From the NCBI GenBank assembly GCA_964651815.1, contig CAZYWG010000010.1, positions 1,377 to 65,376 on the forward strand: 64,000 nucleotides of DNA, in the 5' to 3' direction. Under the pieces are notes generated by a model, which was given only the letters and a program-made list of their open reading frames with translations, was not told the DNA's origin and did no database searches. Of the stretch, positions 3,027 through 63,693 are shown in pieces (the first letter of the stretch is position 1; each line of letters opens with the position of its first letter). The position numbers and the translations under genes are program-made. The DNA comes from an uncultured Gammaproteobacteria bacterium. Lineage in GTDB: Bacteria > Patescibacteriota > Microgenomatia > Levybacterales > GWA1-39-11.

Positions 3027-3047
3027 GTACGCTATTATACCAGAGCC

Positions 3048-34173: not shown

Positions 34174-34218
34174 ATCGGGGTTGACCCCAATTAATCAAGA
34201 TTCGGCAACTAAAAGACT

Positions 34219-35286: not shown

Positions 35287-35316
35287 ATCGAATTAGATTG
35301 TTTAAACTTTTGAAAA

Positions 35317-46163: not shown

Positions 46164-46237
46164 AAAGTGAGTAAATCTTTTATTTTAGTTATGCAATTTT
46201 TCTTAAGATTTGCCGCCTGTTGACATATTGAAAGAAA

Positions 46238-47572
46238 TTGCTTATTCTAAGTTCAAGGCATTTTATGCAAAAGTTGCGAGGCGGTATTGAATTTATTTTA
46301 TCTTCATCTAAATGGGCTTCGCTGCTTCTTATTATCATCGCGCTTTTACTTATTTCCTCAATATTTCTTAAAAATGGGAATAAAGCATCCGCACAAGAAG
46401 CCATTGCAAAACCCAATCTTACTGTCACTCAAGTTCAGCTCAGAAGAAACGCGTACCCTAATGCAAATTGTAGCAACGGAACATTAGTCACAGAGGGAAT
46501 GATGCTTAACCCCGGCGAGACTATAGAGGTCTGTATGGTTTATTCAAACAATGGAACTGCTGTTTCATCGTCGAATTTTAAAATTGACAATTACATAAAC
46601 CAAACAACACAACCCGCTGCCGGAACGCGGGGTTATCAATCATATCCTTATCCGCTTGGCTCACTTGGGCCAGGCGGAAGTTATACGTTGGAAATTGGAA
46701 GTATAGTCCCAAGCACTTCCATATGTTCATCTAATTGTCATGCCGGAGTATTTATTGATAGCGACAACACCGTAAGCGAGTCGAATGAAAGTGACAACTT
46801 TGCATATTCAGTTTCCTACAGTCTCCCAGCTGTTACTACTAGCTTCTGCGTTTCATGTGCTGCTCCACCCGATGGATGTAGTTATACAGGTGGCAGTTGC
46901 CAAAGCTGTGGCACTGTGGTCTGTACCACTTCAACTCCTGCGCCAACCTGTACCCCACGTCCTGCTTGTTCTCTACCCGGTGCTAATCCTATATGCGGAC
47001 TTGTAGAACTTACCGGCGGTGGAACATATTGTCCTCTTACCACACTTGCCCCTACAACAGTCGGCGGAAATGGTGCTCAATGTAGTGTTTCTCTAGCGCA
47101 GGGCGCAAGCCAGCATGGCTCATGTCAAAGTGCATATATTTGTCAGATTAACGCGGCATCTGCTTGTACAGATTCTATGCCAGGTTCCTGCACCGGTACT
47201 TGTGTTGTAACAACTACTCCTCCAATTTGCCCTCTTCATAATTCAGGTGACGCAAACTGCGACGGAAAAATTGATATAGAGGACTTTAACGTATGGAAAG
47301 CCGATTTTCTTTCTACTTTCGGAAGTGGTAATAATCCCGGTGATTCACTTGGACTAGCAGATTTCAACAATGACAATAAAGTGGATACTGATGATTTTAA
47401 TATTTGGCGGGATGGATTTATAATAAAAAGCGCTAAAACTGGCTCATGTAGTGCTGTACCTGACGCAAATGGCGTATGTCCGGCAGGATGTGTAAACTAC
47501 GGGAATCCACTTGGATGTGTAACACAACAATATTATGATGAATGCCAAACGCAAGGAGGCTGTCCCAAATGA
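46238..47572 (+). CDS. Secreted Cys-rich protein with two dockerin-like calcium-binding repeats
   Basis: DANCDGKIDIEDFNVWKADF and DFNNDNKVDTDDFNIWRDGF match the dockerin D-x-N-x-D-G-x-x-x-x-x-D pattern. About 40 Cys in a Thr/Pro/Gly-rich region. Confidence 0.5.
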   Translation: MLILSSRHFMQKLRGGIEFILSSSKWASLLLIIIALLLISSIFLKNGNKASAQEAIAKPNLTVTQVQLRRNAYPNANCSNGTLVTEGMMLNPGETIEVCMVYSNNGTAVSSSNFKIDNYINQTTQPAAGTRGYQSYPYPLGSLGPGGSYTLEIGSIVPSTSICSSNCHAGVFIDSDNTVSESNESDNFAYSVSYSLPAVTTSFCVSCAAPPDGCSYTGGSCQSCGTVVCTTSTPAPTCTPRPACSLPGANPICGLVELTGGGTYCPLTTLAPTTVGGNGAQCSVSLAQGASQHGSCQSAYICQINAASACTDSMPGSCTGTCVVTTTPPICPLHNSGDANCDGKIDIEDFNVWKADFLSTFGSGNNPGDSLGLADFNNDNKVDTDDFNIWRDGFIIKSAKTGSCSAVPDANGVCPAGCVNYGNPLGCVTQQYYDECQTQGGCPK

Positions 47573-47598
47573 TAAAACATATTTTTTAAGAGAGAACT

Positions 47599-50118
47599 AT
47601 GGAAAATAATATAAAAGTACATTTACCAAATATAGATACACCAAATGTTTTAAAACAACTTGGGAGATTTAAATTTTTAATAGGTGTTGTGGTTTTGGCA
47701 ATTTTGGCAATCTCAATTCCTTTGACTCTAAATCAAGTTAAAAAATTCCAGGAAAGCCGCTCCCATGCCGCCGCAGGTGAGGTCTCCATAAAGTTAACCC
47801 CATATGGAGAACCATTCCATGTCGGTGACCGTGTTTCATTGGTGGCTACTGTAGAAGATCAAAATCCAAATTATGACATTTCAGCAATTGATATAACAAT
47901 TGATTACGATAAAAATCTATTGGAACCCATGCCTATATGTGCAACTCCTGAATCCGGACCGCCACCTACTACCCCAGTGGAAGGTTGTCCCGCCGGACAA
48001 ATTGTTACACAAGAGGTCTTTGATACTAACGGCTTGGGTTTTACTACTATAGTTAAAAATATAAATAAAGATACCGGCACAGTTCATTATGTAGGTGTTA
48101 ACCCCACTTCACAGATACGAAATGGCGGAGTTGGTAAAGCTGTTACATTTGGAGGTCTCAACTTTAAAGCAAAAGCGCCCGGGAGTGCCACTGTCGGCTT
48201 TTCAAATATTCACATAAACGCAGCGGGAGTTACGGGTGCCCTTCCAATTGATACAACCAACACAAAAATCGGCACATACACAATTAGCACCGGGGCACAA
48301 ACTATCAGAGAATACATGAAAGGTAATAGTGGTAAACATATTGTAACTTTTAAATGCGACTCAAACTGCAATGGGCTCACCGGGCAATCAATTCCGCTCG
48401 CCATAATTCAGGATACAGCTGACATGCTAAAGGGATATTATGACAATGACACCACAAAAACCGTGCGCCTTTTCAACGCACCAGGACTTGACGGTAATGA
48501 ATCCACATTCTCTCTTGCCACAGGGTCTGACGTTGCATCCACTATCATTCTTACCGGTTCTGCCAAATTGTCAGACGGTACATTACATGGAGACGCAAGA
48601 ACTAGCTCCGGCCAAATTCTTGAATGGGAAATGGACTCCTCCACTGGAACTACGTCTCCGGACTTACGAGGAAATTACAGACTTGCCGGAACCTGTGTCA
48701 CTGGCTGTACCGGAGATTTTATACATATTATGAAAATTACAGCCATGGACGGTGAAGTATTTTCAGGAACCGGATATTATATTGCTGATCCGTCAATAAC
48801 TTGGACAGTAACAGGAACCGTAAATCCCGCCACCAAAGTAGTCCTATTTCATATAGTCTATACCGGAACAACTGCAGGTTACTCATCAGAATTCACGGGT
48901 ACTTTAAAGAGCGATGGAAGCATGTCTGGGACTAACACTTCAAGCCAAAACCAAACCGGCACATGGATTTTAACACCTTTAAAAAGCCTAAAAGGTCTTT
49001 ACAATTTAGATGCCACCTGCACAATAAATTGTACAGGTGATTATATTCATACTGTGAATATTACGGATGAAAATATAGACACAGGAACCTTTTCCGGAAA
49101 AGGAATCTATAATGGCGATACTTCAGTTACGTGGGATATTACAGGTACTGAAAATTGGGTCAATAAAACTATGACTTTCCACTTAAATTACACTGGCACA
49201 GGCGCCGGCTATAAAGCAGATGGAACAGGGAAAATCCGTGATGACGGAACTATGGATGGAACTGACACCACTAGCCAAAACCAAACCGCCAATTGGAAAA
49301 TGACACCTATTAAACCTACTCACTGTGGAGGAAATACTGCAAATCCGCTCACTTGCCAGGCCGGCCAAGTTTGTATTCCAGTTCCAGGGCAAAATGCACC
49401 TGCGGGGGATGTTGGCGGAATTTGTGTCGTCTCCGAACAACCACAGTCATGCACAGATGATTCTTCATGTCCAGCAGGATACACCTGCAATGTAGTTGCA
49501 GTTGCGGGAGCTGTACCTGGCACAAATGGCACAGGTGGAGTTAACAGTTCTGAATTAAAACAGTGCGTACTCACAGGTGGAACGTCATTAAGCCTTTCTT
49601 TGAAGCTTCCTGGTGTAGGCAATGGCGCTGCCAGCCTGCAACTTAATGCAAACCCTAAAAGACTAGAAAGGGGTGTAACTATAGTTTTGTCTAATTCACA
49701 AAATCAGCAATTGGAATCTGTCACTGGAAAATTACTCTACGATAGGACAAGTGGCTTATATAAAGGAATTATAAATCTCGGCAAAACTATACAAACGGGC
49801 GCATATCTTATAAAAGTCAGTGTTGACAATAGCTTGCGCAAATCCCTACCTGGAATCCAAAATATTACGGTAGACACAATCAATCAGAGTTCAACCATAG
49901 AATTTCTTCAGGGGGATATAGTTGCAAGTGACGGAACGGCACAGCAAGATAACGTTATAGATGTAGCCGACTATACAACATTCCTTGCGTGCTACCGCAA
50001 AGCAACATCGTGTACAGCGGAAATTAAATCAAGGGCGGATTTCACAGATGATGGTGTAGTTGACGATAAGGACCTGAACATCCTTTATACTGCCTTTAAG
50101 GCAAGACAAGGAGATTAA
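47599..50118 (+). CDS. Large surface protein with an N-terminal cohesin-like segment, two internal about 105-aa tandem repeats, and a C-terminal dockerin-like repeat
   Basis: IDITIDYDKNLLEP is cohesin-like. The repeat units start RGNYRLAGTCVTGCTGDFIH... and KGLYNLDATCTINCTGDYIH.... C-terminal DFTDDGVVDDKDLNILYTAF is dockerin-like. Confidence 0.5.
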   Translation: MENNIKVHLPNIDTPNVLKQLGRFKFLIGVVVLAILAISIPLTLNQVKKFQESRSHAAAGEVSIKLTPYGEPFHVGDRVSLVATVEDQNPNYDISAIDITIDYDKNLLEPMPICATPESGPPPTTPVEGCPAGQIVTQEVFDTNGLGFTTIVKNINKDTGTVHYVGVNPTSQIRNGGVGKAVTFGGLNFKAKAPGSATVGFSNIHINAAGVTGALPIDTTNTKIGTYTISTGAQTIREYMKGNSGKHIVTFKCDSNCNGLTGQSIPLAIIQDTADMLKGYYDNDTTKTVRLFNAPGLDGNESTFSLATGSDVASTIILTGSAKLSDGTLHGDARTSSGQILEWEMDSSTGTTSPDLRGNYRLAGTCVTGCTGDFIHIMKITAMDGEVFSGTGYYIADPSITWTVTGTVNPATKVVLFHIVYTGTTAGYSSEFTGTLKSDGSMSGTNTSSQNQTGTWILTPLKSLKGLYNLDATCTINCTGDYIHTVNITDENIDTGTFSGKGIYNGDTSVTWDITGTENWVNKTMTFHLNYTGTGAGYKADGTGKIRDDGTMDGTDTTSQNQTANWKMTPIKPTHCGGNTANPLTCQAGQVCIPVPGQNAPAGDVGGICVVSEQPQSCTDDSSCPAGYTCNVVAVAGAVPGTNGTGGVNSSELKQCVLTGGTSLSLSLKLPGVGNGAASLQLNANPKRLERGVTIVLSNSQNQQLESVTGKLLYDRTSGLYKGIINLGKTIQTGAYLIKVSVDNSLRKSLPGIQNITVDTINQSSTIEFLQGDIVASDGTAQQDNVIDVADYTTFLACYRKATSCTAEIKSRADFTDDGVVDDKDLNILYTAFKARQGD

Positions 50119-50239
50119 GAGAATTTCGAAATTAGAATTTAGAATTTGGGGTTGAAAATTAAGACTTTACAAAAATTAAAATAAGTACTAACCTATTATT
50201 AGCGTTCTATTCTAGATTCTAAACTATAAATTATTAAAT

Positions 50240-50890
50240 ATGCCTAAAAAAACTACAGTTCTTATAGCAATTCTTGCAGTTGTCACAGTGGTTCTTTTGG
50301 GTCTTGCGCTTATCCAGAGCCAAAAACAAAATACACTTATGACAAGTATCTCGCCTACTCCAAAACCGGTTGAAAAAACAGCCAAAATTTTCTTTAACCC
50401 TGGGACGTGGGATTCAACTTCTGCTACAACTCCAACTGCGTCAGTTGACATCATTATAGACTCTGGAAATAGTGCTCTAGCAGGTGCGCAAGTAGAACTT
50501 CAATATGATCCAAAAGCACTTAGTAATGTAAAAGTTGCGCCAGACGTGAGTACAAACAGTTTTTTTGGTGGCACGGCCAACGTTTTATTTAATGAAAATA
50601 CACAAAGCTCAGGAAAAGTTGAATTTGCTATCGGAATTCCTCCTACTGGGACCGCAAAAAAGGGCTCGGGAAAAATTGCAACATTATCATTTCAAAAATT
50701 ACCGGGCACAACAGAGGCTTCTACTACTATAGTTTTCCTTAACAAAACCTTGGTCTTAATGCTTGATTCTTCACAATCCGTCTTGAAAGATACAACTCCT
50801 CTCATGATAACGCTTGGACAAGCACAACCCAACAAATATCTCCCTCCAACAACCCAGGCACCTTCCAAATCTACCGCCCCTTCTTATTAA
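50240..50890 (+). CDS. Membrane-anchored cohesin-like domain protein (minimal scaffoldin-like)
   Basis: Signal anchor, then SVDIIIDSGNSALAGAQVELQYDPKALSNVKV...GKIATLSFQKL, the type-I cohesin beta-sandwich pattern. Confidence 0.45.
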   Translation: MPKKTTVLIAILAVVTVVLLGLALIQSQKQNTLMTSISPTPKPVEKTAKIFFNPGTWDSTSATTPTASVDIIIDSGNSALAGAQVELQYDPKALSNVKVAPDVSTNSFFGGTANVLFNENTQSSGKVEFAIGIPPTGTAKKGSGKIATLSFQKLPGTTEASTTIVFLNKTLVLMLDSSQSVLKDTTPLMITLGQAQPNKYLPPTTQAPSKSTAPSY

Positions 50891-51239: not shown

Positions 51240-52859
51240 ATGAAAAAAAAACCGCTATATATTTCTGTTGTCTTTTTAATTGCTTCACTGGTCGCGATTT
51301 TCCTTGATAAATTTTCTGATTTAACAACTATTTTTGAGATCCTTTCCGTACTCATATTAGTTTCAATTATTCTTCTTAGGGTAAATATTAAAAGGCTAAA
51401 GTTTAACGTGTTAAACAACCCTATTTCAAGCTCCATTCTTTTATTCTCTCTTTCTCTTTTTATTATCCTTCTAATTACTTCAACCGGCGCATTTTTTAGT
51501 CCTCTCCTTATTACGCTTCACATTACAACTCTTTGTATAGCTTTTCTGCTTTCATTTCCGCTTGCTATGGTATTTTTGTTTTCCGGAGTTCTTGCACTAT
51601 CTATACATTCTTATACAATTTATGCTTCACACGCGGCTACTTTTGACCCTGCACTACTTATAATTCAGCTGGCATCAATAGTTGGAATCATACCTTTTTC
51701 CTCAATTGCGGCAACACGTTACCATGTTCGTGAGAAAATTGCAGATTATTTTTTTGCAGAACTATCCCTCAGTAAATCGGAAGAAAGTTTGATTCTTGAT
51801 AATATTGCCGAGGGAGTTATAACTATGAATAGAAAATTTTCTATAGTCAAAATTAATAAAATTGCGGAAAACTTGTCCGGATTTAAACCTGAAGAATTAG
51901 CGGAAAAAGATTTTTTTGAAGTTTTTAAATTATATGACATTAAAAAAGATTTAATTACAAAAGATCAATTTCCGATACATGACCTTCTCAACCATCAAAC
52001 AGGATTTTCAGAATCGGGTCTTTTTATGCAAAAAAAAGACAGCGAGCTTTTTAATATAGATTTTAAATTTTCATCAGTTGTTGGGGCTGAAGGAAAAATT
52101 GAGGCTTTTTTGTTTGTTTTTAATGAAAGGCAAAGAAACTTGGCGAGCTCCTTACCCGTTTCTGTTTTGCAAGGAAGTTTTGATAAATTTCAACGCTTAA
52201 TTAGCAGCTTAAATGAAAACATTACAACTCTAGAACAAAATTCCGACCTGTCAAGCAAGGATATAGTTACAAATCTCAATAAAAACTCAAAAAGGATGCT
52301 CCATGCATATAAAAATCTTCATACGCTTTACGAACTTTCAATGGGTGAAATTCCAGGACTTCTCTCAGACCTTGATGTAGGTAAAACAGTTGTTAAAATG
52401 ATTGATGAAGCGGGAGATCTTGCAAAACAATATAATGTATCCTTAATCAACTCCGCACCAATTGCACCCTCTCTTCCAATTAAAACTAACAAAATTATTT
52501 TTGAAGAAGCTATTGGGAAAATAATTGAGCTTGGAATTTTTATTGCCTCTTCTTCTCAAGATCAATTTATAATTGTTTCCATTGGATCCTCCCAAGATAA
52601 TATTTTTGTTTTTGTGAAAGCGGCGGCTTACGAAAATTTTCCTTGGTCCGCCGCGGACGAACTGTTAAAACCGTTTTTTGGGACGCTTTCTGATACACAC
52701 GAGTTATCAGAGGCAAGTGGACTTGAAGGATATCTTGCAGACCGCCTTCTTAAGGAAAAAGGAATATCAGGAGGAATAACAGCGGCAAAATTCGAAGACG
52801 GACTAAACCATCCCCAGCTTATTCTCACTGTTATTTTACCAAATTCCGAAAGTACATAA
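51240..52859 (+). CDS. Membrane sensor protein with a PAS domain and a degenerate histidine-kinase-like C-terminus
   Basis: 6 TM. LILDNIAEGVITMNRKFSIVKINKIAENLSGFKPEELAEKDF is PAS-like. G1/G2 ATPase boxes are degenerate. Confidence 0.45.
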   Translation: MKKKPLYISVVFLIASLVAIFLDKFSDLTTIFEILSVLILVSIILLRVNIKRLKFNVLNNPISSSILLFSLSLFIILLITSTGAFFSPLLITLHITTLCIAFLLSFPLAMVFLFSGVLALSIHSYTIYASHAATFDPALLIIQLASIVGIIPFSSIAATRYHVREKIADYFFAELSLSKSEESLILDNIAEGVITMNRKFSIVKINKIAENLSGFKPEELAEKDFFEVFKLYDIKKDLITKDQFPIHDLLNHQTGFSESGLFMQKKDSELFNIDFKFSSVVGAEGKIEAFLFVFNERQRNLASSLPVSVLQGSFDKFQRLISSLNENITTLEQNSDLSSKDIVTNLNKNSKRMLHAYKNLHTLYELSMGEIPGLLSDLDVGKTVVKMIDEAGDLAKQYNVSLINSAPIAPSLPIKTNKIIFEEAIGKIIELGIFIASSSQDQFIIVSIGSSQDNIFVFVKAAAYENFPWSAADELLKPFFGTLSDTHELSEASGLEGYLADRLLKEKGISGGITAAKFEDGLNHPQLILTVILPNSEST

Positions 52860-52881
52860 AGTTTTTAAAAGCAAAGGCTTC

Positions 52882-52911
52882 TTGACAATTGCATAATTTT
52901 CGTTTCATAAT
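52882..52911 (+). promoter_or_regulatory. Sigma70-like promoter TTGACA–17–TCATAAT upstream of the GH5 gene (TTG start at 52938, short leader)
   Basis: Hexamers and spacing read directly. Confidence 0.4.
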
Positions 52912-52937
52912 GAATTCAAGGCATACTTTTCACAACC

Positions 52938-54452
52938 TTGAAGAATTTATTAACGCACTACAGAAAATCCATCAATCCCCCATATGGCGGAAAAGATTAT
53001 CCCGCTATCGCAGCAACCTTATTGTTTCTTCTAGTTTCATTAGTTGTAATAATAAGTCTTCCCAATAAGCTAAACCAAAACGCTTATCCAAAAAGCGGCT
53101 CTGCACAAACTGTTACAAACAGAATAACATGGCAAGGAAACAACTGGTATATTCACGGCGCAAACGTTCCATGGTACAACTGGGGGTGTGATTTTGGGTG
53201 TAACTCAACAAATGGGAAAAGCGGCGGCGTTTCGAACAACCTAAGCAATCTCACTGTAGCATTCCAACAGGCAAAAAATTCAGGAGTTCATGTTTTAAGG
53301 TGGTGGGTTTTTCCGGGTGATCCGTGGCAAATCACGCGTGACAGCGCGGGCCCAACCGGAATTGATCCTGCCGTATATCCTGATTTTGATGCGGCTTTAA
53401 ATCTTGCAAACCAATATGATATGTACTTTAATTTTATGTTGTTTTCTGCACCCACTGCTATGCCAAGTGCATGGGAGACTGATACAACCCAGAGAGGCAA
53501 ATTAGTTCAAGCGCTCAGCACTCTTTTTGCGCATTATGCCGGCAATCCAAGAATACTGTCTTGGGAAATTTACAACGAACCGGAAAATGACATTTGGAAT
53601 AATAGGATAGCTCAACAACCCGTTGTTGATACCGGTACTGCTATTGCAACTGCAGTCCACTCAAGTTCTCCAGGGACGCTTGTCACGGTAGGAAGTTTAT
53701 TTGCTGATGGAATGAAAATGTGGCTAAATGCTGGACTTGACTACTATTCTCCTCACTGGTATGACTACATGAGCGGTGGCGATTATTGCATGATTTGTCA
53801 CAATTATAGTTATTATTCTGCTTGGGGAGTAACAAAACCAATTGTAGTTGGTGAATTTTATTCGGGAACAAGCGCAACGACACCGACATCTTCAAACAGG
53901 TATGATTATTGGTATAACAACGGCTATGCTGGCGCGTGGGCTTGGTCATTATTCCCAAGTCATACTAGCGACGGTTTGCAAATTGATTTTACTGCTGCAA
54001 CAAATTTTGCTTCTCAACATGCAGATATTGGGCCAATTGCCGGATTTTCCTCAACCCCAACGCCTACTCAGGCCGTATCCTTGACACCTACCCCCGCAAT
54101 CTCACAGGCACCATCTTCTACTCCCACACCATCGCCAAGCCTTACTCCTGTACCGACAGTAGGATCAAATGACGCAACCGCTCCAACTGTGACTATCACC
54201 TCGCCTTTAGCCGGCTCAACTGTAGCTGTTAGGAAGAATGTAACAATTCAAGCAACTGCCTCTGACAACGTTGGAGTTTCGAGGGTAGAATTCTATATCA
54301 ATGGAACGCTGACCTGTACCGACATTTCGAGCCCCTACTCTTGTTCTTGGAAAGTTCCTGGCTCAAAGAACAGAACTTACAAATTGTCTGCCAAGGCGTC
54401 GGATGCTGCCGGTAATAATTCAACAAGCTCAATTAGTGTTACTGCAAGATAA
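52938..54452 (+). CDS. Glycoside hydrolase family 5-like (cellulase/mannanase clan GH-A) with a C-terminal Ig-like domain. Signal-anchored with an N-terminal YRKSINPPY motif.
   Basis: WEIYNEPEN (GH5 acid/base NEP motif), then a Thr/Pro linker and a 95-aa Ig-like domain shared with four neighbours. Confidence 0.65.
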   Translation: MKNLLTHYRKSINPPYGGKDYPAIAATLLFLLVSLVVIISLPNKLNQNAYPKSGSAQTVTNRITWQGNNWYIHGANVPWYNWGCDFGCNSTNGKSGGVSNNLSNLTVAFQQAKNSGVHVLRWWVFPGDPWQITRDSAGPTGIDPAVYPDFDAALNLANQYDMYFNFMLFSAPTAMPSAWETDTTQRGKLVQALSTLFAHYAGNPRILSWEIYNEPENDIWNNRIAQQPVVDTGTAIATAVHSSSPGTLVTVGSLFADGMKMWLNAGLDYYSPHWYDYMSGGDYCMICHNYSYYSAWGVTKPIVVGEFYSGTSATTPTSSNRYDYWYNNGYAGAWAWSLFPSHTSDGLQIDFTAATNFASQHADIGPIAGFSSTPTPTQAVSLTPTPAISQAPSSTPTPSPSLTPVPTVGSNDATAPTVTITSPLAGSTVAVRKNVTIQATASDNVGVSRVEFYINGTLTCTDISSPYSCSWKVPGSKNRTYKLSAKASDAAGNNSTSSISVTAR

Positions 54453-54500
54453 CATATTCAATAGTCTAGAAACTAGCTACTGGCAAAATACGGCAGGGAA

Positions 54501-56747
54501 ATGAAATTGAAACAACTTATACAAACATATAGAAAAGGGATTAATCCACCATATTCTAAAAAAGATTTCCCAATTGTTGCAGGTACTCTACTCGTTTTGC
54601 TTATTGTTACTCTTGTTGTAGTTATTCTTCCTAATCAATATAAGAGTAAACAAACAGAAAACACTCATGCACAGGAAGTAAAAAAGATTGAGGTACAAGC
54701 TGCACCAGACGAAATTTTAGTAAAATTTAAACCAGGGGCAACAGAACGGATTAAAAATTCTGTCAGGCGGGCATTTGGACTAACCAAAAAAGATGAACTT
54801 ACGCAAATTGGTGTTGAAGTATTGAAAACAACTCCGGTGAACCGGGATCACATCGCCGAAGCGTTAAATAAACGACCTGAAGTTCAGTTTGCGCAACTCA
54901 ATTTTATTACTAAACCTGCAATTGTACCAAATGACACTAATTATTCTACACAATGGCACTTACCTGATATTTCTGCAGATAGAGCTTGGGATGTTGCAAA
55001 AGCTACTGGAATCCTAATAGGAATGTGTGATACAGGAGTAAATCAAGTTCCGGATCTAGCCCCGGTCTTGCGGACAGATCTTGGTTGGAACGCGGTTGAT
55101 GGATCTAGCAACTTCAGTGACCCCATAGGGCACGGAACCGGTACGGCGGGTGCGGCTGCGGCAGCAACAAACAATGCTCTTGGGGTAGCTGGCGTTGCTT
55201 GGGGAGCACAAATTATACCTGTTAGAGTCAGCAATCTTTCGGATGGTTCCGCGTATACAAGTGATATTGCAAAATGTATTAATTATTCGGCAGATCATGG
55301 AGCAAAAGCTATCAATGCTTCCTACGGTGTAGCCGGCGACTCAACTATCAATTCAGCCGGACTTTATGCACAGAGCAAAGGAGCATTGCTTACTATTTCT
55401 GCCGGAAATAGTGGTTTGGATCCAGGATGGTCTAACTTGCCAGGTATTATTGCAGTTTCCGCTATGGACACTCTTAACAATCCTGCTACCTTTACAAATT
55501 TCGGAAATTTTATTGATGTGGCAGCCCCAGGTGCAAGTATTTATACTACAAAAAATGACGGAAACTATTGGTATACTGCAGGTACGTCTTTTAGCGCGCC
55601 GATTGCAGCCGGAGTGATTGGCCTTATTTTCGGCGCAAAACCCTCATTAACTGCAGCTCAGGCTCAGGATATTTTGTTTAAAAATTCGGATGATCTTGGG
55701 ATCTCTGGATGGGATAAATATTTTGGATGGGGACGAGTTAATGCGCTCCGCACTGTAGATGCAGCCCTGGGTCTTGCACCGGACACTACGGCACCCATTG
55801 TTTCCATTACCAATCCTATAACAAATTCTACTGTTTCCGGCCAATCTGTATCAATTAGTACACAAGCTTCAGATAATTTTGGAGTAACTAAAGAAGAACT
55901 TTATATAGACAACGCTCTAATTGGAACAACGACCTGGTTCTTCTCCGGTGGAACTGCATCGTTCACTTGGGACTCAAGAACCGTTCCAAATGGATCACAT
56001 ACTATCATCGCCAAAGCTTATGATGGGGCAGATAATGCTGGAACTTCAACATCTGTAATAATCAATGTTGTGAATTCTTCCGATATCACTGATCCCACAA
56101 TTTCAATCACAAGTCCGGCAAACAACACCACTGTTTCCGGAACTATAAATGTTGCAGCAATAGCATCAGATAACATTGGTGTAGTAAAAGTAACTTTTGA
56201 TAAGTTTGGTGCACCGTTACAAACATTTACTAACCCTCCTTATTCTTTTTCCTGGGACACAAATGCCGCATTGGCGAGCCAATGTCCAACCACATGTATA
56301 ACAAATATTCAGGCGACAGCATATGATGCCGCTGGAAATTATGCATCTGCAAACGTAGGTATAACTTATAACAATAGTGGTGTAACTACCTCTCCTACAG
56401 CAACACCAACAATTGGTTTATCTCCCACAAATACTCCCATTCCATCCCCTACACCTTCCTTAACAGATCATACTTCGCCAACTGTAACTATCTCCTCTCC
56501 TCTCGCGGGGTCAACAGTAGCGGTTCGTTCAAATGTAAATATCCAAGCAACAGCTTCTGACAATATTGGAGTTGCCCGAACAGAGTTCTATGTCAATGGA
56601 ACTCTCACTTGTAGCGATACGAGCTCACCCTACTCTTGTTCTTGGAAAGTGCCGGGAGCTAAGAATAAAAGCTATTCGATTAGTGCAAAAACGTATGATG
56701 CTGCTGGAAATAATTCAACAAGCTCAATTAGTGTAACGGCAAAATGA
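54501..56747 (+). CDS. Subtilisin-like serine protease (peptidase S8) with I9 propeptide and three C-terminal Ig-like domains. N-terminal YRKGINPPY motif.
   Basis: Catalytic triad contexts GMCDTGVN (Asp), HGTGTAG (His), GTSFSAPIAAG (Ser). Confidence 0.8.
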   Translation: MKLKQLIQTYRKGINPPYSKKDFPIVAGTLLVLLIVTLVVVILPNQYKSKQTENTHAQEVKKIEVQAAPDEILVKFKPGATERIKNSVRRAFGLTKKDELTQIGVEVLKTTPVNRDHIAEALNKRPEVQFAQLNFITKPAIVPNDTNYSTQWHLPDISADRAWDVAKATGILIGMCDTGVNQVPDLAPVLRTDLGWNAVDGSSNFSDPIGHGTGTAGAAAAATNNALGVAGVAWGAQIIPVRVSNLSDGSAYTSDIAKCINYSADHGAKAINASYGVAGDSTINSAGLYAQSKGALLTISAGNSGLDPGWSNLPGIIAVSAMDTLNNPATFTNFGNFIDVAAPGASIYTTKNDGNYWYTAGTSFSAPIAAGVIGLIFGAKPSLTAAQAQDILFKNSDDLGISGWDKYFGWGRVNALRTVDAALGLAPDTTAPIVSITNPITNSTVSGQSVSISTQASDNFGVTKEELYIDNALIGTTTWFFSGGTASFTWDSRTVPNGSHTIIAKAYDGADNAGTSTSVIINVVNSSDITDPTISITSPANNTTVSGTINVAAIASDNIGVVKVTFDKFGAPLQTFTNPPYSFSWDTNAALASQCPTTCITNIQATAYDAAGNYASANVGITYNNSGVTTSPTATPTIGLSPTNTPIPSPTPSLTDHTSPTVTISSPLAGSTVAVRSNVNIQATASDNIGVARTEFYVNGTLTCSDTSSPYSCSWKVPGAKNKSYSISAKTYDAAGNNSTSSISVTAK

Positions 56748-58207
56748 TTAGAGAGATGAAAAAGTTATTAAAAGATTATAGAAAGGCAATTAATCCTCCG
56801 TACTTAAAAACGGATGTTCCGATTATAAGTGCTACCCTGCTCATTCTCCTGCTCGCAGTCATCCTGATCCTAAATTTACCGGATGTATTCAATTCAAAAA
56901 AAATTACTGAATCTCATGCGGCAGTTGATTGCGGAACATCACTTCAGACAAAAATTGATGGGGCTCTATCGGGTTCCACAGTGGACCTGACCGGTTGCAC
57001 ATATAGCGGGACTAATATTCAGATTTCAAAACCCTTAACAATAATCGGGGGAAGTTTTAACTCAACTTCAACTGATCGCTGGAGCAATGCTTTTGTAATT
57101 AATTCAGATAACGTAACTGTTCAGAAATGGACATTTGCTGGAGGTGGTCAAATTATTGCGGATCTTGGACACTCAAATGTAAATATTCTCAACAACAGTT
57201 TTTCCAATCAATTAGGCTCCTCTGTAGCGCTCTGGGGAGCATCAAACAACGTAATAATTGACGGAAATAAAATTGTTCAATCTGTAACAAATCAAGTTTC
57301 ACCTATAATAGCAAGAGCATCGGAAGATTGCTCTGTCTATCTTAAAAACTTAATAATAAGAAACAACTATATGGATCAGGGACCGGCCGGGGTAGGTTGG
57401 TTTGGTATAGAACTAAAATGTAATGATGGTGTCCTAATTGAAAATAATACGCTCCATGGTGGAGAAACCTTAGTCTCTCTCCCGGATACTAATAATGTTC
57501 AGGTTAAAAATAATACATTTGACATGACCGGAGATGCTTATTGGGGGGTGGAAATAGCCCATGCAAACAACGTGACAGTCGCTGGAAATACATTTTTCGG
57601 AGATGGGCCTTCTGGCACAGATCATGCGGTATCAGAAAACAGCGGCAGTCAAAACTCCTATATATCCGGTAATAATGTGCATGATATTAGAACTCTTGTT
57701 GATGTAGGTGGGGATTATATCTCAATAACTGATAATTGCCTGGTAAATGTGTTGAGGGTAACGGAATATGATAGTTCGGGAACTCATGTAATATTGTCAA
57801 ACAACGGTCCGTGTCCTTCTCCTTCTGTTACACCAACGGGTGTAATTACTACTCCATCAACGACTCCGACACCCGCACCAACTGTGACTGCATTCCCAAC
57901 TCCCGCACCAACCGTGACCTCAAACGACACAACATCCCCTAGCGTTAGGATAGATTCCCCGCTTAACGGATCAATAATAAAAGCAAAATCTACAACGTCA
58001 ATTACCGCGTCGGCTTCAGATAATTTGGGAGTGACAAGAGTTGAATTTCTAGTCAACGGTACGCTCATCTGTTCGGATACCACTTCGCCTTACACGTGCT
58101 CATGGAGAGTACCAGGTTCAAGAAATAGAACATATACTATTTCTGCCAAAGCATATGACGCCGCCGGAAATAATTCAACTAGTTCTATTAGTGTCACGGC
58201 AAAGTGA
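56744..58207 (+). CDS. Right-handed parallel beta-helix (pectate-lyase-like) protein with a C-terminal Ig-like domain. N-terminal YRKAINPPY motif. ATGA overlap with the S8 gene.
   Basis: Repeated NN(x)F/I...G..N beta-helix rungs (NVNILNNSF, NNVIIDGNKIV, IIRNNYM, IENNTLHGG, VKNNTFDMTGD, VAGNTFFGDG). Confidence 0.5.
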   Translation: MIREMKKLLKDYRKAINPPYLKTDVPIISATLLILLLAVILILNLPDVFNSKKITESHAAVDCGTSLQTKIDGALSGSTVDLTGCTYSGTNIQISKPLTIIGGSFNSTSTDRWSNAFVINSDNVTVQKWTFAGGGQIIADLGHSNVNILNNSFSNQLGSSVALWGASNNVIIDGNKIVQSVTNQVSPIIARASEDCSVYLKNLIIRNNYMDQGPAGVGWFGIELKCNDGVLIENNTLHGGETLVSLPDTNNVQVKNNTFDMTGDAYWGVEIAHANNVTVAGNTFFGDGPSGTDHAVSENSGSQNSYISGNNVHDIRTLVDVGGDYISITDNCLVNVLRVTEYDSSGTHVILSNNGPCPSPSVTPTGVITTPSTTPTPAPTVTAFPTPAPTVTSNDTTSPSVRIDSPLNGSIIKAKSTTSITASASDNLGVTRVEFLVNGTLICSDTTSPYTCSWRVPGSRNRTYTISAKAYDAAGNNSTSSISVTAK

Positions 58208-58300
58208 GGTTAACTCTTGACAAAATTACAGTATTAATACAACAATTAACTTGTTAAGCATTTGAGAAAAACTTATTTTCGACTAATTAAATAAAAAACC

Positions 58301-59620
58301 GTGGAAGAACAAAAACTTAAATTACCAAAAAAAGATTCCTCAGTTCAATTTCACGCTTTTGCTTATGTTATAGTTGGAGTTTTTATTGGTCTCATAGTAG
58401 GTTTCTTTAGTGCGTTTTTGTATCTTAAAAACATCGCGATCTCTCCAAACGTTGCAATAACTAAGACTGAAGAAAGTGCTCCTGCAGAACTTCCACCACA
58501 AGCTGCACTTCACGTACCGGTGTGCATTCCAAGAGGACCACAAGCTGTGAAATGTCATGCCCAAGTGGTAATCAATAAAAGTGGACAACCTGATTTGACA
58601 AGCGTACCTCAAGGATATGGCCCCGTACAATTCCAGACAGCATATAGCCTTTTGGGGAAAAGTTCTTCCGGAAGAATTGTTGCAATAATTGATGCATATG
58701 ATAACCCAAATATTAAGCCTGATCTAGACACATATAGCGGTGCGTTTGGGCTTCCTGTTCTCCCAACATGCCAAACAACAATTAAAGATTCCGCAACTCC
58801 TTGTTTTCAAAAAATTGATCAAAGAGGGGGAACATCCTACCCAGCTGCCGATTCTTCATGGGCTCTTGAAATTGCACTGGATACTGAAGTAGTACACGCT
58901 GCCTGCCCCGACTGTAAAATTCTTCTTGTGGAGGCAGACAGTAATACTTATGACAGTTTGTTGGCGGCAGAGGATAAGGCTGTTGCTCTTGGAGCTTCTG
59001 TTGTCTCAAACTCCTACGGTTCAGGCGAATTCAGCTCAGAAACATCATTTGACAGCCATTTCAACGTTGCGGGGGTAGCTTTCACCTTCTCCTCAGGAGA
59101 CGCGGGTTACGGGAGTACATATCCCGCAGCCTCACGTTATGTCACAGCGGTTGGCGGGACTACCCTTCTTTTAAACTCTAATAATACGTATAAAAATGAA
59201 ACTGCCTGGAGCGGCGCAGGAAGCGGTTGTTCAAATTTTGAAATTAAGCCAACATGGCAAAGTGATAAAGGATGCCCTATGAGGACAATTGTTGATGTCT
59301 CAGCTGATGCTGACCCTTCAAGTGCTGCTGCAGTTTATGATACGGTTCCTTACGGCGGGACGGGTCAAACAGGTTGGTTCCAGGTTGGCGGGACAAGCCT
59401 TGCTTCACCGCTCGTCGCTGCTGTATTCGCACTCAAAGGAGTGCCACCAGGCACACAAGCAAACTCTCTCCCATATCTTTCCGCTACCACCGGATTAAAT
59501 GACGTGACTAGAGGTTCAAACGGTGGGTGTCCTCAAAAAAACAAATATTTATGTAGTGCAGTCGTGGGCTATGATGGACCAACGGGTCTCGGGACTCCAA
59601 AGGGAATAGGTGCATTTTAA
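58301..59620 (+). CDS. Peptidase S8/S53 (sedolisin-like) family serine peptidase, membrane-anchored
   Basis: SGDAGYGSTYPAASRYVTAVGGTTL and GGTSLASPLVAAVFALKG (Ser nucleophile), typical of S53/S8. Confidence 0.55.
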   Translation: MEEQKLKLPKKDSSVQFHAFAYVIVGVFIGLIVGFFSAFLYLKNIAISPNVAITKTEESAPAELPPQAALHVPVCIPRGPQAVKCHAQVVINKSGQPDLTSVPQGYGPVQFQTAYSLLGKSSSGRIVAIIDAYDNPNIKPDLDTYSGAFGLPVLPTCQTTIKDSATPCFQKIDQRGGTSYPAADSSWALEIALDTEVVHAACPDCKILLVEADSNTYDSLLAAEDKAVALGASVVSNSYGSGEFSSETSFDSHFNVAGVAFTFSSGDAGYGSTYPAASRYVTAVGGTTLLLNSNNTYKNETAWSGAGSGCSNFEIKPTWQSDKGCPMRTIVDVSADADPSSAAAVYDTVPYGGTGQTGWFQVGGTSLASPLVAAVFALKGVPPGTQANSLPYLSATTGLNDVTRGSNGGCPQKNKYLCSAVVGYDGPTGLGTPKGIGAF

Positions 59621-59643
59621 TCTCTTCTCATAGAAGAAAATAT

Positions 59644-60012
59644 TTAGATAAGTTCTTCTAGCTCCTCAGGTGCATCATGGTCTTCAAAAACTCCTTGCTC
59701 ATCCCAAATAAGCGCTTGAAGTAGATATTCTTTCAGAAGACGAAGACGTTTTATTTCTTTTAGCAATTTTGTTGCTTTTTGAGGGTGGTTGCGGACTAAT
59801 TGATAGAAAAGCGATTCGAGTTGCTGTAATCTATTTGAAATTGCCTGATGAGTTGCAATAATTTTTCCCTGGCGGCTCCTCTTTCTGTATGTTTTAAATT
59901 CACGTAACCGCTGCCACTCGCCGGCCTGAATTTCGCGATTCAAATCTGAATCTACAACATCATCGCGCTTTTCTTGAGTACTGGACTTTTCTTCTTTATT
60001 TTTTTTCTCCAT
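59644..60012 (-). CDS. Hypothetical charged protein (122 aa)
   Basis: ORF only. Confidence 0.3.
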   Translation of the reverse strand: MEKKNKEEKSSTQEKRDDVVDSDLNREIQAGEWQRLREFKTYRKRSRQGKIIATHQAISNRLQQLESLFYQLVRNHPQKATKLLKEIKRLRLLKEYLLQALIWDEQGVFEDHDAPEELEELI

Positions 60013-60015
60013 GAA

Positions 60016-60222
60016 TTATCTTACTACTTCTGCAAGTTTTTCCGGAAGGTCTATTCCTGTACGCACAAGCCCAGAACCCACAGCGCCCCCCATTTTACGT
60101 GCGATGTTGTAATAAATCCACTTATCTTTCCTGCGAATTGCCGCAAGATAATCAAAAATATCCCAGTTTTGTGTATTGTATTCTCTTTCCATATTATTGT
60201 TTAATTTTTTGGCTCCCGCCAT
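60016..60222 (-). CDS. Hypothetical small protein. Start is ambiguous (Met at 60222 or 60192), and it overlaps a second small minus-strand ORF at 60201..60356 encoding a 51-aa membrane peptide.
   Basis: Two overlapping small frames; neither verified. Confidence 0.25.
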   Translation of the reverse strand: MAGAKKLNNNMEREYNTQNWDIFDYLAAIRRKDKWIYYNIARKMGGAVGSGLVRTGIDLPEKLAEVVR

Positions 60223-60427
60223 CGTCCAATAAAAAATATCGCAAGCCCAACTGCTACCATCGGATAGTCAACGCTTATAACACCCAAAAGCGTGAGTGCG
60301 CCTCCTAGTCCTTTTTCAAAAATTGATTCAGCTTTTCTGTAGGTTTCTTTTGCCATTTGATGTAATTATATAACTTGAACAAAAATAATCTTCACGAATA
60401 AATAACAATATTGTGATAAAGTAGATT

Positions 60428-60682
60428 TTAGGCGTGCGCTGGCATTACTTGGGCTCGTGTATTTCTTCCACCAGCTTCCTCTGGATTAAGCTTGCGATGT
60501 AAAAGGTACCTCATAACTCCAAGCCCTGCGCCAACAATTGGCAAAAACTGGGCTGCCAACCATCCATACAACACAAAACCAATAGCAATCGATACATCGA
60601 GAGGACCCTTTCCCTCAATTTCGCGAACCGTGTTTTTTACTCGACCCCAAAAGCTATCAGTATGCGAACCTCTCTCTTGCAT
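60428..60682 (-). CDS. Small membrane protein (84 aa)
   Basis: One or two hydrophobic helices; ORF only. Confidence 0.3.
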   Translation of the reverse strand: MQERGSHTDSFWGRVKNTVREIEGKGPLDVSIAIGFVLYGWLAAQFLPIVGAGLGVMRYLLHRKLNPEEAGGRNTRAQVMPAHA

Positions 60683-60779
60683 TAAAGAATATTATACTAC
60701 CTATAGGATACTTTTAGCAAATCGCGGGCATCCTAAATGTATTGCTTGTTAATATTTCTTTGACTATACTATATACATT

Positions 60780-62753
60780 ATGGATTATAGAATTCCTCCG
60801 CCTGGACAAAGCTATAATTCATTCCACGAAAAAGAAACTAAAAAAATAGACCGCGAAATTAATAAAAGCTTTATTTTCCTGACTATCTTCTCTATTTCCA
60901 TCTTTGTGATATCCACAATCTTAATCAAACAGAGCCAGGATTTAAGACAAAGAGCTGAAACCCCTTCTATTAACCAAGACGCGGCCCCTGACGAGATTCT
61001 TCTTAAATTTAAGCCGGGGGCAAAACAAAATATTAAGAATAAAATACTCTCGCTACATGCGCTCTCTGTCAAAGAAGAAATTAAACAAATTGATGTAAAA
61101 GTAGTAAAAGTTGCGCCGACTTCAAGAGATTACGTTGTTGAAGCGCTGTCTCATAACCCGGCAATAGACTTTGCAGAAACAAACAAAATTCTTAAAACTC
61201 AACTTGTTCCAAATGACCCTTATTTCAGCCAGGAATGGCACCTTGCTGATATACAAACACCCGCTGCATGGGATAGCACAAAAGCCACGGGTGTTCTAAT
61301 TGCGATGTGTGATACTGGAGTTAATCAAGTTGCTGACCTGACGCCGGCTTTACGGACAGATCTTGGCTGGAATGCAGTTGACGGAACGAGTGACTGGTCT
61401 GATCCAATTGGACATGGGACAAGCACGGCGGGAGTAATAGCTGCCGCAACAGATAATGGAATAGGTGTTGCAGGAGTCGCCTGGGGAGCACAAATTATTC
61501 CAGTTAGAGTAAGTAATTTATCCGGGGGAAATGCATACATAAGCGATATTATAAAATGCATAAATTATGGCGCAGATAATGGAGCACGCGTCATTAATGT
61601 GTCCTATGATGTTGCAGGAGATAGCGGCGTTGATGCGGCCGGACAATACGCCCAAAGCCGCGGCGGACTACTTTTTGCTGCCGCAGGCAATAGTGCATCA
61701 GACCCTGGTTATCAAAATTACCCTGGTATTATTGCCGTATCGGCAACTGCCGGAACAAATCTTACAGGGTTCTCTAGCTTTGGAAATTTTATTGATCTTT
61801 CAGCGCCTGGAACAAATATATATTCAACAAAATTTGACGGTACATTTTGGCCTGTCAGTGGAACTTCTGTTGCGTCGCCTGTTGCAGGTGGTGTTGCGGC
61901 ATTAGTATTTGGAATAAAACCGCAATTTACCGCTCTGCAAGTGCAAAATATTCTCTTCCAAAACTCTGACGACCTTGGAGCGCCGGGATACGATGTGCAA
62001 TTTGGCTGGGGAAAAATTAATGCGGCAAAAGCAGTTGCAGCGGCTTTAGGAACTACACCAACTGACACCACCGCACCTGCTACAAGTATAAGCTCACCTA
62101 CCAGCGGAAGTACAATAAGTGGACTAGTCCCTATCAACGCTGACGCAACAGATAATGTTGGGGTTGCAAGAGTTGAGCTCTATTTTGAAAACCCCGGCGG
62201 AACTCCATACGCAGTTGACACCACGTCCCCGTATTCATTTATTTGGGATACAACTCAGGTATCGAATGGCCAGCATCTCATATATACAAAGGCATATGAC
62301 ACTGCCGGTAACACTACTACGTCAAACGGCATTTCATTGACCGTAAATAACACTCTGCCCACACCAACGCCTACTATAACACCAACTTTTGCTCCAACCT
62401 CAACTTTAGCCCCAACTCAAACTCCATTTCCAACGGCAACAATTAAACCAACACCCACTACCACTTCACAAGATAAAACTGCGCCGGTTGTTACTATAAT
62501 TTTTCCACTGGCAGGTTCAACTGTTGGGGTTAGAACAAATATTAATATTACGGCAACAGCAATAGATAACGTGGGAGTAACAAAAGTAGAATTTTATGTA
62601 AACGGAACATTAAATTGTTCTGATTCCGCATCTCCTTACACATGTGGCTGGAAAGTACCCGCATCAAAGAATAAAACCTATACTCTTGCGGCAAAAGCAT
62701 ATGACGCAGCAGGAAATTTCTCAGGGGGAAGCATTAGCGTGACCGCAAAATAA
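60780..62753 (+). CDS. Subtilisin-like serine protease (peptidase S8), paralog of 54501..56747, with two C-terminal Ig-like domains
   Basis: AMCDTGVN / HGTSTAG / GTSVASPVAGG triad. Same I9 propeptide pattern (ILLKFKPGAKQNIKN). Confidence 0.8.
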   Translation: MDYRIPPPGQSYNSFHEKETKKIDREINKSFIFLTIFSISIFVISTILIKQSQDLRQRAETPSINQDAAPDEILLKFKPGAKQNIKNKILSLHALSVKEEIKQIDVKVVKVAPTSRDYVVEALSHNPAIDFAETNKILKTQLVPNDPYFSQEWHLADIQTPAAWDSTKATGVLIAMCDTGVNQVADLTPALRTDLGWNAVDGTSDWSDPIGHGTSTAGVIAAATDNGIGVAGVAWGAQIIPVRVSNLSGGNAYISDIIKCINYGADNGARVINVSYDVAGDSGVDAAGQYAQSRGGLLFAAAGNSASDPGYQNYPGIIAVSATAGTNLTGFSSFGNFIDLSAPGTNIYSTKFDGTFWPVSGTSVASPVAGGVAALVFGIKPQFTALQVQNILFQNSDDLGAPGYDVQFGWGKINAAKAVAAALGTTPTDTTAPATSISSPTSGSTISGLVPINADATDNVGVARVELYFENPGGTPYAVDTTSPYSFIWDTTQVSNGQHLIYTKAYDTAGNTTTSNGISLTVNNTLPTPTPTITPTFAPTSTLAPTQTPFPTATIKPTPTTTSQDKTAPVVTIIFPLAGSTVGVRTNINITATAIDNVGVTKVEFYVNGTLNCSDSASPYTCGWKVPASKNKTYTLAAKAYDAAGNFSGGSISVTAK

Positions 62754-63174: not shown

Positions 63175-63693
63175 TTATTTACCTTGTGCAGTAAAGCTTA
63201 TCTCAGCAAGAGGATGAAATACTTGTGATGGAGTAAATTGCCAATAATAAAGGGTTGCTACGCAATTCGCTGCGCCATTGTGCCAAAGCCAAACAGATGT
63301 TGTGCCGCCAAGAAAGGTTTGATCTGCAGGGCCCGCCTCGCCGTATACTACAGGATCTGTTTGTGTTTGTGTCACTCCATTACCATCAACATAAGTAAAA
63401 GGTACGGGTTGAGTACAAATTACCTGTATTCTAGGAGCCTTCACTGTTTTTGGGTATGTAGTTGTGAATGTTAAATAATCTCCGAGTTTGGGGTTGGCGT
63501 TATTTAATACTATTGTGCCTGTTCCCATGGTATTTACGGTCTTATTTCCTGCAGCGTCACTTGGTGTTTGTTTTGATGTATCTTTAAGCTTATTTGGAAG
63601 AGAAACAATAGCATAAAATGCAATCAATAGAGCAATAAGGGTAATTCCTACCAAAACAAAGTCTTTCTGTGAGGATGCTGATTTTGAAGCCAT
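63175..63693 (-). CDS. Membrane-anchored secreted protein, unknown function
   Basis: N-terminal anchor VLVGITLIALLIAFYAIV, then a Thr/Gly-rich beta-type domain. Confidence 0.4.
   Translation of the reverse strand: MASKSASSQKDFVLVGITLIALLIAFYAIVSLPNKLKDTSKQTPSDAAGNKTVNTMGTGTIVLNNANPKLGDYLTFTTTYPKTVKAPRIQVICTQPVPFTYVDGNGVTQTQTDPVVYGEAGPADQTFLGGTTSVWLWHNGAANCVATLYYWQFTPSQVFHPLAEISFTAQGK

Follow-up and report, generated by a model that had tools for sequence, protein, structure and literature searches.

A conserved N-terminal leader of about 55 residues, probably an undescribed extended Sec-type signal peptide, on secreted proteins of Microgenomates-group Patescibacteria

Results

Three consecutive genes begin with the same leader

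Within a 64,000-nucleotide stretch of contig CAZYWG010000010.1 (assembly GCA_964651815.1), referred to throughout as the window, three consecutive genes encode secreted proteins that differ in their cores yet share the type of N-terminus with which they begin: MKNLLTHYRKSINPPYGGKDYPAIAATLLFLLVSLVVIISLPN.. (gene 1), MKLKQLIQTYRKGINPPYSKKDFPIVAGTLLVLLIVTLVVVILPN.. (gene 2) and MIREMKKLLKDYRKAINPPYLKTDVPIISATLLILLLAVILILNLPD.. (gene 3). We call this shared element the INPPY leader. The genes, their leaders (scored in bits against a profile of the three sequences) and the motif within each leader (six-frame search and shuffle test) are as follows.

52938..54452, + strand: gene 1, 504 aa, TTG start; INPPY leader, GH5 beta-mannanase-like domain, Pro/Thr linker, C-terminal Big_7 domain
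52938..53105, + strand: gene 1 leader, residues 1-56, ending ..GSA before Q57; 95 bits
52959..53003, + strand: gene 1 motif, YRKSINPPYGGKDYP
54501..56747, + strand: gene 2, 748 aa; INPPY leader, fervidolysin-type prodomain, Peptidase_S8 domain, three Big_7 domains
54501..54671, + strand: gene 2 leader, residues 1-57, ending ..THA before Q58; 98 bits
54528..54572, + strand: gene 2 motif, YRKGINPPYSKKDFP
56744..58207, + strand: gene 3, 487 aa; INPPY leader, right-handed beta-helix (NosD-like), Pro/Thr linker, Big_7 domain
56744..56920, + strand: gene 3 leader, residues 1-59, ending ..SHA before A60; 94 bits
56777..56821, + strand: gene 3 motif, YRKAINPPYLKTDVP

An earlier note on this DNA had reported a conserved motif ahead of a hydrophobic segment in these genes, and our searches confirmed it. 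The consensus YRKxINPPYxx[KT]DxP is followed by a hydrophobic helix in all three; six-frame translation of the whole window yields exactly three matches to YRKxINPPY (52959-52985, 54528-54554 and 56777-56803), and the back-translated motif pattern is matched three times as against 0.00 expected from 100 dinucleotide-preserving shuffles.

The assignment of the three proteins to the GH5, S8 and beta-helix families was likewise upheld, by matches of the gene 1 protein to the GH5 mannanases 2c0h, 3vup and 5y6t in the PDB, by the Peptidase_S8 domain and prodomain of gene 2 (an identical protein is encoded on two Logan contigs) and by Beta_helix/NosD matches in gene 3, whose first 4 nt are also the last 4 of gene 2. 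They had also been described as unrelated enzymes, which holds for the catalytic cores but not for the proteins as wholes: all three carry the same C-terminal Big_7 immunoglobulin (Ig)-like domain (residues 416-485 in gene 1) behind a Pro/Thr-rich linker, and all end in ..SISVTAK/R, without an LPXTG signal or a C-terminal transmembrane (TM) segment. The products of genes 1-3 and of the S8 paralog at 60780 are modular, with the same C-terminal module in all four, the same leader in addition in genes 1-3, and different cores. The Big_7 copies of these GH5, beta-helix and two S8 proteins lie at 54183-54392, 56478-56687, 57938-58147 and the 3' end of 60780-62753; the four window domains are 63-80% identical as protein and only 61-74% identical as DNA. 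The looser YRIPPPGQSY noted in the S8 paralog is present in its sequence, yet it goes undetected by both the whole-leader and the n-region profile, and it is not counted as a copy.

The leader recurs far beyond the window

A profile of the three N-termini (50 positions), run with HMMER against 1.84 billion representative proteins, retrieved 83 protein clusters at E<=1e-3 (11 of them at E<=1e-10); the matches begin within the first 30 residues in nearly all 83, on proteins of 67-1575 aa. We also scanned JGI metagenome contigs with a degenerate DNA pattern encoding Y-R-x-x-I-N-P-P-Y-x3-D-x6-T, which gave 72 matches in 58 contig stretches and 0 matches in 2.9 million viral contigs. At nearly all of these metagenome loci the leader, as delimited by the leader profile, lies at most about 20 residues from the start of the open frame and is followed by a hydrophobic helix; at two loci (L042 and L056) the leader profile found no match, and the pattern match is taken to lie at the locus edge. 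The protein and metagenome sets together hold 140 non-identical leaders. A stricter pattern scanned over genome contigs (K/R at the third position, and D-x-P), which excludes most family members, matched one locus only, in a syntenic Patescibacteria metagenome-assembled genome (MAG). Word-indexed protein searches miss true leader matches of about 50 residues, and their negatives are no evidence of absence.

The named sources of leaders are 'Patescibacteria group bacterium' and Candidatus Woykebacteria, and ribosomal protein S2 in the window has its nearest matches in Candidatus Levybacteria (74-78% identical); Levybacteria and Woykebacteria both belong to the Microgenomates. The leader is a module carried by many secreted proteins of Microgenomates-group Patescibacteria (candidate phyla radiation, CPR). 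Leader genes outside the window often stand in tandem arrays: one Woykebacteria assembly has at least four at two sites, a second has a five-gene array with two strict and one degenerate leader, and one metagenome contig (L011) has five consecutive profile matches, four strong and one weak (30.9 bits) without the INPPY core. Degenerate n-regions such as CREAITSPY, INYPY and KPPY occur too.

Anatomy of the leader

In the alignment of these matches the conserved unit is not just the motif of 15 residues but the whole leader, of about 55 residues (about 53-60), which qualifies the earlier proposal that the motif was the unit; the motif itself is real, translated and under selection at the amino-acid level. 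The protein frequently starts M-R-A-x-D-L-[F/L], often from a GTG codon, and insertions are tolerated solely between this block and the Y-R of the n-region core, Y-R-[KQE]-x-I-N-P-P-Y-x-x-[KR]-D, whose spacing to the hydrophobic helix is fixed. The conserved positions are listed below with offsets counted from the N of NPPY and counts out of 83 (profile matches) or 101 (main type); the profile itself included TM residues, which inflates the apparent conservation of the helix among the 83.

-5 to 0, first half of the n-region core: Y-5 (78), R-4 (77), [K/Q/E]-3, I-1 (80), N at 0 (82)
+1 to +7, second half of the n-region core: P+1 (82), P+2 and Y+3 (both 83), [K/R]+6, D+7 (77)
+8 to about +29, hydrophobic helix: I+11, T+14 (78), L+18 (74), P+22 (56), T+24
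+30 to +38, polar stretch of the main type: Q+30, R+32, [S/G]+36, [R/K/Q]+37, A+38

Across the 140 leaders the n-region is 22 residues long at the median and always positively charged, at +1 to +8 net (mean +3.6), and the helix of about 21 residues has a mean Kyte-Doolittle hydropathy of 2.55. The residues before NPPY are amphipathic, with a helical hydrophobic moment of 0.57 as compared to 0.36 after shuffling. In the main type the helix contains ..I-P-L-T-V.. and is followed by Q-x-R-x-x-x-[S/G]-[R/K]-A, with Ala at +38 in 87/101 leaders, R/K/Q at +37 in 80/101 and S/G/T at +36 in 60/101. Conservation ends sharply, information content being at background after +39. The window leaders fall into a sub-type of 16 distinct leaders, where the helix gives way to [L/I]-P-N-[R/K]-[F/Y]-K-.. 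and the conserved Ala lies at +42/+43, so that the polar stretch consists of LPN, some 12 further residues and [S/H]-A, and ends ..GSA/Q, ..THA/Q or ..SHA/A (the slash marks the end of the leader). An AlphaFold2 model based on 77 aligned leaders with the window GH5 leader first (mean predicted local distance difference test score, pLDDT, 86.9) has a helix at residues 2-12, a break at N13-G17 and a second helix at 18-40. NPPY is accordingly modelled as a turn between two helices, and the gene 1 leader is laid out as n-region helix, NPPY turn, hydrophobic helix 18-40, LPN and polar stretch.

Selection on the peptide

A recent local duplication of the gene starts, with high nucleotide identity of the 5' ends, had been named in the earlier note as the finding that would undo its proposal. 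A codon-anchored comparison gave only 56-57% DNA identity among the three 5' ends; each pair of leaders has 21-23 identical residues, 12-17 of them encoded by different codons. Among 69 distinct DNA copies of the leader all synonymous codons are in use at R, T+14, L+18, P+22 and A+38, and the conserved residues as a whole include both Arg codon families and all six Leu codons, which argues that selection acts on the peptide and not on an RNA or DNA element. The similarity of the leaders is kept up at the protein level and does not stem from recent local duplication.

Cargo of the leader

The claim that different secreted proteins share the motif proved true far beyond the locus, in the profile search and in the metagenome pattern scan alike. 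Pfam searches of 47 representative cargo proteins of at least 230 aa identified 47 families, all extracytoplasmic in kind, of which the following are the commonest and some of the rarer ones.

Commonest: Big_7 26, Dockerin_1 15, Peptidase_S8 8, Big_13 7
Four each: NHL, cohesin, fn3
Two each: DUF4185, FG-GAP, PA14, beta-helix, F5/8C, papain-like C1, M11
One each: GH5 cellulase, DUF2961, sortilin

Leader type follows the genome rather than the cargo. S8 cargo carries both leader sub-types, and GH5 cargo carries the LPN-type leader in the window and the IPLTV-type leader in a metagenome locus (L004); the catalytic domains of these two GH5 proteins are 51% identical and their leaders only 34%, as compared to a leader identity inside one locus of 50-55% in the window and 58% in L004. 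Among 75 leaders, identity was 0.53 within genomes (also 0.53 on unrelated cargo) versus 0.47 between genomes, a within-genome value reached by 3 of 2000 label permutations. The difference, though modest, is consistent, and the pattern fits co-evolution with a shared trans-acting reader. Homology between the two GH5 proteins restarts about 8-10 residues past the conserved Ala. In S8 cargo a prodomain stands between the leader and the catalytic domain.

Taken together, these results define an N-terminal module of about 55 residues that is homologous, strongly selected and Sec-like in layout, and that is fused to many unrelated secreted proteins of one lineage.

Comparison with known signals

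The motif had been put forward as a possibly novel signal, and in our searches it proved undescribed: no Pfam or NCBIfam model scanned, and no paper retrieved by full-text literature search, describes an INPPY leader. The literature search returned nothing relevant for INPPY or NPPY as a signal motif or for CPR signal-peptide motifs, and scans of the leaders alone at E<=10 against Pfam and, for seven leaders, against NCBIfam gave noise only.

Akin to ordinary Sec class I signal peptides, the leaders have a positive n-region followed by a hydrophobic (h) region, with a mid-helix Pro and an end that may correspond to a small-x-Ala site. They differ from them in being about twice the usual length, in the near-invariant 15-residue motif of the n-region, in the conserved positions of the h-region and in a long, charged c-region. 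The residues at +38, +37 and +36 would be positions -1, -2 and -3 of a putative cleavage site, with Pro at -3 in 16/101 and a distance from the helix that is longer than usual.

Among signal peptides with conserved additions, the YSIRK/G-S type (TIGR01168) is likewise defined by an n-region motif of a Sec signal peptide on a subset of unrelated surface or secreted proteins of monoderms, and its residue make-up (Y, R, K, S, I) is similar. YSIRK steers secretion to the septum, by means that are not yet clear (PMC5962339, PMC11898559). Unlike YSIRKxxxGxxS, which runs into the helix, YRKxINPPYxxKD lies about 5 residues before it; the hydrophobic helix of the leader is itself conserved, the lineage is CPR, and the three window proteins lack the LPXTG signal by which YSIRK cargo is anchored to the cell wall. 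The TIGR01168 model had no match among the seven leaders scanned against NCBIfam at E<=10.

The extended signal peptide region (ESPR, PF13018), found on autotransporters and on two-partner secretion proteins, influences how these are targeted or how fast they are translocated. It resembles the leader in forming part of a signal peptide of about 50-60 residues, with a conserved N-terminal extension before the n-h-c part, on large secreted proteins; long autotransporter signal sequences have been described (PMC2805444). ESPR cargo, however, consists of type V secretion passengers of diderms, whereas leader cargo consists of enzymes and cohesin, dockerin and Ig-like proteins of CPR bacteria, and ESPR has a hydrophobic segment of its own where the INPPY n-region is an amphipathic helix and a turn. 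PF13018 had no match in the full proteins or in the leaders alone at E<=10, and no autotransporter or two-partner secretion (TPS) domain occurs among the 25 most frequent of the 47 cargo families, the remaining 22 lying outside that survey.

The KxYKxGKxW motif (TIGR03715) of serine-rich glycoproteins of Lactobacillales, too, is a conserved N-terminal signal-peptide motif of a specific class of surface proteins; it is lineage-restricted and linked to an accessory Sec system. It is bound to one cargo class, whereas the cargo of the INPPY leader is very diverse, and TIGR03715 had no NCBIfam match at E<=10. Neither accessory secA2 nor secY2 occurs near leader genes in our neighbour survey.

Three further signal types were considered and rejected. 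A twin-arginine translocation (Tat, TIGR01409) signal does not agree with the residue pattern, as there is no RR (R-4 in 77/83 is followed by K/Q/E at -3, with R in just 6/83) and the basic pair sits some 10 residues ahead of the helix and not at its edge; the Tat model had no match in the NCBIfam leader scans. A class III prepilin-like signal does not agree with Asp at the n/h junction in 77/83, the lack of a conserved Gly and the lack of Glu at +5. A lipoprotein signal would need a lipobox, and no Cys is conserved anywhere in the leader.

Conserved-motif extended signal peptides are already known; new here are the sequence, the lineage and the unusual conservation through the hydrophobic helix.

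Interpretation and alternatives

We consider it probable that the leader is an undescribed extended signal peptide of the Sec type with a conserved cytoplasmic n-region, used as an export module. The hydrophobic segment had been called a membrane anchor; it bears more resemblance to the h-region of a long signal peptide that can be cleaved off, and conservation ends at a site resembling that of signal peptidase, [S/G]-[R/K]-A. The leader would insert N-in through the Sec translocon, as its positive-inside charge suggests, with the n-region staying on the cytoplasmic face, where the invariant residues may be read by some targeting or translocation component; the invariance of these residues, their fixed spacing to the helix and the tendency of leader type to follow the genome point in that direction. 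Signal peptidase I would then cut after the conserved Ala and release the cargo, since conservation ends there, the site reads small-x-Ala and cargo homology resumes 8-10 residues on. Once released, the cargo could stay at the surface by means of dockerin or Ig-like modules of its own. The removable prodomain behind the leader of S8 proteins, together with the dockerins on a third of the cargo, favours a role in export rather than in anchoring. By analogy, the n-region likely works like YSIRK/G-S or the autotransporter signal-peptide extension, and it would set the route, timing or place of export.

Several observations weigh against this assignment. Cleavage of the leader we infer solely from where conservation ends, and for a substrate of signal peptidase I both the helix of about 21 residues and the polar stretch are long, the latter being charged and spanning 9-10 residues in main-type leaders, as against about 15 in those of the window type; position -3, moreover, is Pro in the 16 leaders mentioned. 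The within-genome excess in leader identity is small, taxon names exist for only few leader matches, and the TM bias of the profile noted above flatters the helix. A similar h/c region, with no INPPY n-region ahead of it, is present in other proteins that these genomes secrete, so that export as such does not require the n-region; it is an add-on found on a subset of secreted proteins. Lastly, we clustered 382 neighbouring genes and searched them for signal peptidase and sortase signatures, and no dedicated protease, sortase, receptor or other partner recurs beside leader genes: no signal peptidase I signature was found in this neighbour scan, and a sortase lies beside 1 of about 58 loci. The dedicated export or sorting system proposed in the earlier note stays conjecture.

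The main rival explanation, which we judge unlikely though worth keeping in mind, is an uncleaved signal anchor, by which the proteins would be type II membrane proteins whose conserved cytoplasmic tail of 20-25 residues, the amphipathic helix with NPPY, binds a partner in the cytoplasm or the membrane and holds the enzymes at a cell site such as that of division or host contact. The helix is of TM length and hydropathy and has near-invariant T, L and P, a feature missing from ordinary signal peptides; a long, charged polar stretch precedes the conserved Ala, and the three window proteins have no other obvious anchor (LPXTG or C-terminal TM). Conservation, however, stops at what reads as a small-x-Ala site, as it would for a cleaved module, the S8 prodomain separates the helix from the enzyme, and 15/47 cargo proteins have dockerins as other means of retention. 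Subtilase prodomains are removed, so the leader could hardly be a permanent anchor of the S8 enzymes. An explanation at the level of translation is improbable: the invariant Pro-Pro, which falls at residues of about 14-20, might impose an EF-P-dependent pause, early in mRNAs whose 5' leaders are very short, that co-regulates exoprotein output and has nothing to do with targeting, and many leader genes have a consensus promoter with a -10 box ending about 11-14 nt before the start and no clear Shine-Dalgarno sequence; such a pause would leave unexplained why Y, R, I, N, Y and D next to Pro-Pro are just as invariant, why the spacing to the helix is fixed and why residues inside it are conserved.

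We regard it as very improbable that the leader belongs to one of the other known routes (Tat, class III prepilin-like or lipoprotein). In favour of such a route are the polar n-region with its R-K pair, the wealth of type IV pilus genes in CPR bacteria and a very weak NCBIfam match of one leader to the pilin UpsA (E = 0.066); the residue pattern is nevertheless wrong for all three routes, no TAT, pilin or lipoprotein model was matched, and the cargo consists of large multidomain enzymes. Least credible of all is that the leaders are alike merely because the gene starts were recently duplicated in tandem, or underwent gene conversion, in the locus, and that the likeness has no function. The genes are adjacent and share their C-terminal Big_7 as well, and leader genes are often tandem elsewhere, but synonymous sites are largely randomised at the 56-57% DNA identity given above, with all synonymous codons in use at conserved residues; over 140 distinct proteins, drawn from many samples, carry the leader, a single genome can have it at several sites, and the divergence among matches elsewhere rules out assemblies of one organism.

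To the favoured reading, an extended Sec-type signal peptide, a further step can be added that we put forward as a rather doubtful one, namely that the INPPY n-region and the T/L/P helix form the address tag of a Microgenomates-specific sorting step with a putative cytoplasmic or membrane receptor. If this were true, chosen hydrolases and cohesin, dockerin and Ig-like proteins would be delivered to a particular export site or assembly, which could be the wall-growth zone by MreBCD-PBP2 or a host-contact site, and the system would stand beside those of the sortase, exosortase and YSIRK type as a new, N-terminal equivalent. CPR bacteria (Patescibacteria) make up a large share of bacterial diversity, are mostly uncultivated and are thought to live on or from other cells; the export and placement of their surface enzymes are central to their biology and almost unknown. 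The strongly conserved leader singles out a defined set of secreted hydrolases and cohesin, dockerin and Ig-like proteins; its profile offers a sequence handle for listing that exoproteome in metagenomes and improves the annotation of gene starts and signal peptides in CPR genomes, and the leader is a concrete peptide for fishing out a partner. Should a specific factor read the n-region, this would be a new case of signal-peptide-encoded sorting in a lineage with a poorly understood envelope.

Gene context and neighbouring features

Genes that do recur beside leader genes encode PBP2 (9 loci), GT1 (7), GH94 (5), MreC (4), a cupredoxin (4) and, in 4 loci, a 114-aa membrane protein without a Pfam match that we read as MreD-like; this recurrence is housekeeping synteny only. 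The Woykebacteria arrays sit between mreBCD-PBP2 and guaA/topA. Arrays in L004, L066, L013 and about 9 metagenome loci repeatedly adjoin mreB-mreC-mreD-PBP2(-cupredoxin) and precede guaA/topA; in Woykebacteria-like genomes they resemble an exoprotein island of variable content whose place on the chromosome is fixed.

Two features outside the three-gene array were delimited in the window.

52882..52911, + strand: sigma-70-like promoter candidate upstream of the array, TTGACA, 18 nt, CATAAT; 11/12 positions
63175..63693, - strand: small secreted protein of 172 aa with a hydrophobic helix and SLPNKLK like the h/c part of the leader, without the YRKxINPPY n-region

The promoter candidate ends 27 nt ahead of the TTG start of gene 1 and is the best promoter-like site in 52700-60900, a region with 22 such sites as against a shuffle mean of 17.7, that is, without enrichment. 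Many leader genes elsewhere have a TTGACA-N17-(C)ATAAT box of their own (for instance in L011, L022, L025, L040, L050 and L052, and further in L053, L054, L058, L061 and L064), and in these the -10 box ends only about 11-14 nt before the ATG or GTG, without a clear Shine-Dalgarno sequence. This pattern suggests very short, near-leaderless 5' untranslated regions and separate transcription of genes within arrays. Directly upstream of the window array, at 51240-52859 (+), lies the gene of a polytopic membrane protein (539 aa, weak PAS domain), which keeps the same position in the syntenic MAG (L001, 213-1778, -) and may be a sensor controlling the exoenzyme genes.

The small protein at 63175..63693 scored 20.3 bits with the whole-leader profile and E = 0.0065 with an h/c-only profile, and had no match to the n-region profile; we read it as a partial relative. 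A second, broader signal peptide type, typical of the lineage, has a helix with (A)IP(L/V/I)T(V/I) followed by Q-x-Q-[D/E]-x-R-x-R-A and no INPPY n-region; it occurs in the window at 45558-46163, 47599-50118 and 60780-62753, and elsewhere at 2712-3038 and 4124-5467 of L001 and 6782-9916 of L004. It looks like the parent of the INPPY leaders, which would differ from it by their n-region, and it appears to be undescribed as well.

Two other groups of genes lie further upstream in the window. At 45558-50890 there is a cluster of secreted-protein genes in which cohesin-like and dockerin-like modules can be read by eye, which suggests a cellulosome-like surface assembly in this CPR bacterium. At 33085-36576 (+) stand three tandem paralogs (362, 355 and 419 aa) that have in common a C-terminal domain ending ..GFTxVEWGG.. 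and that all carry a hydrophobic segment at the N-terminus.

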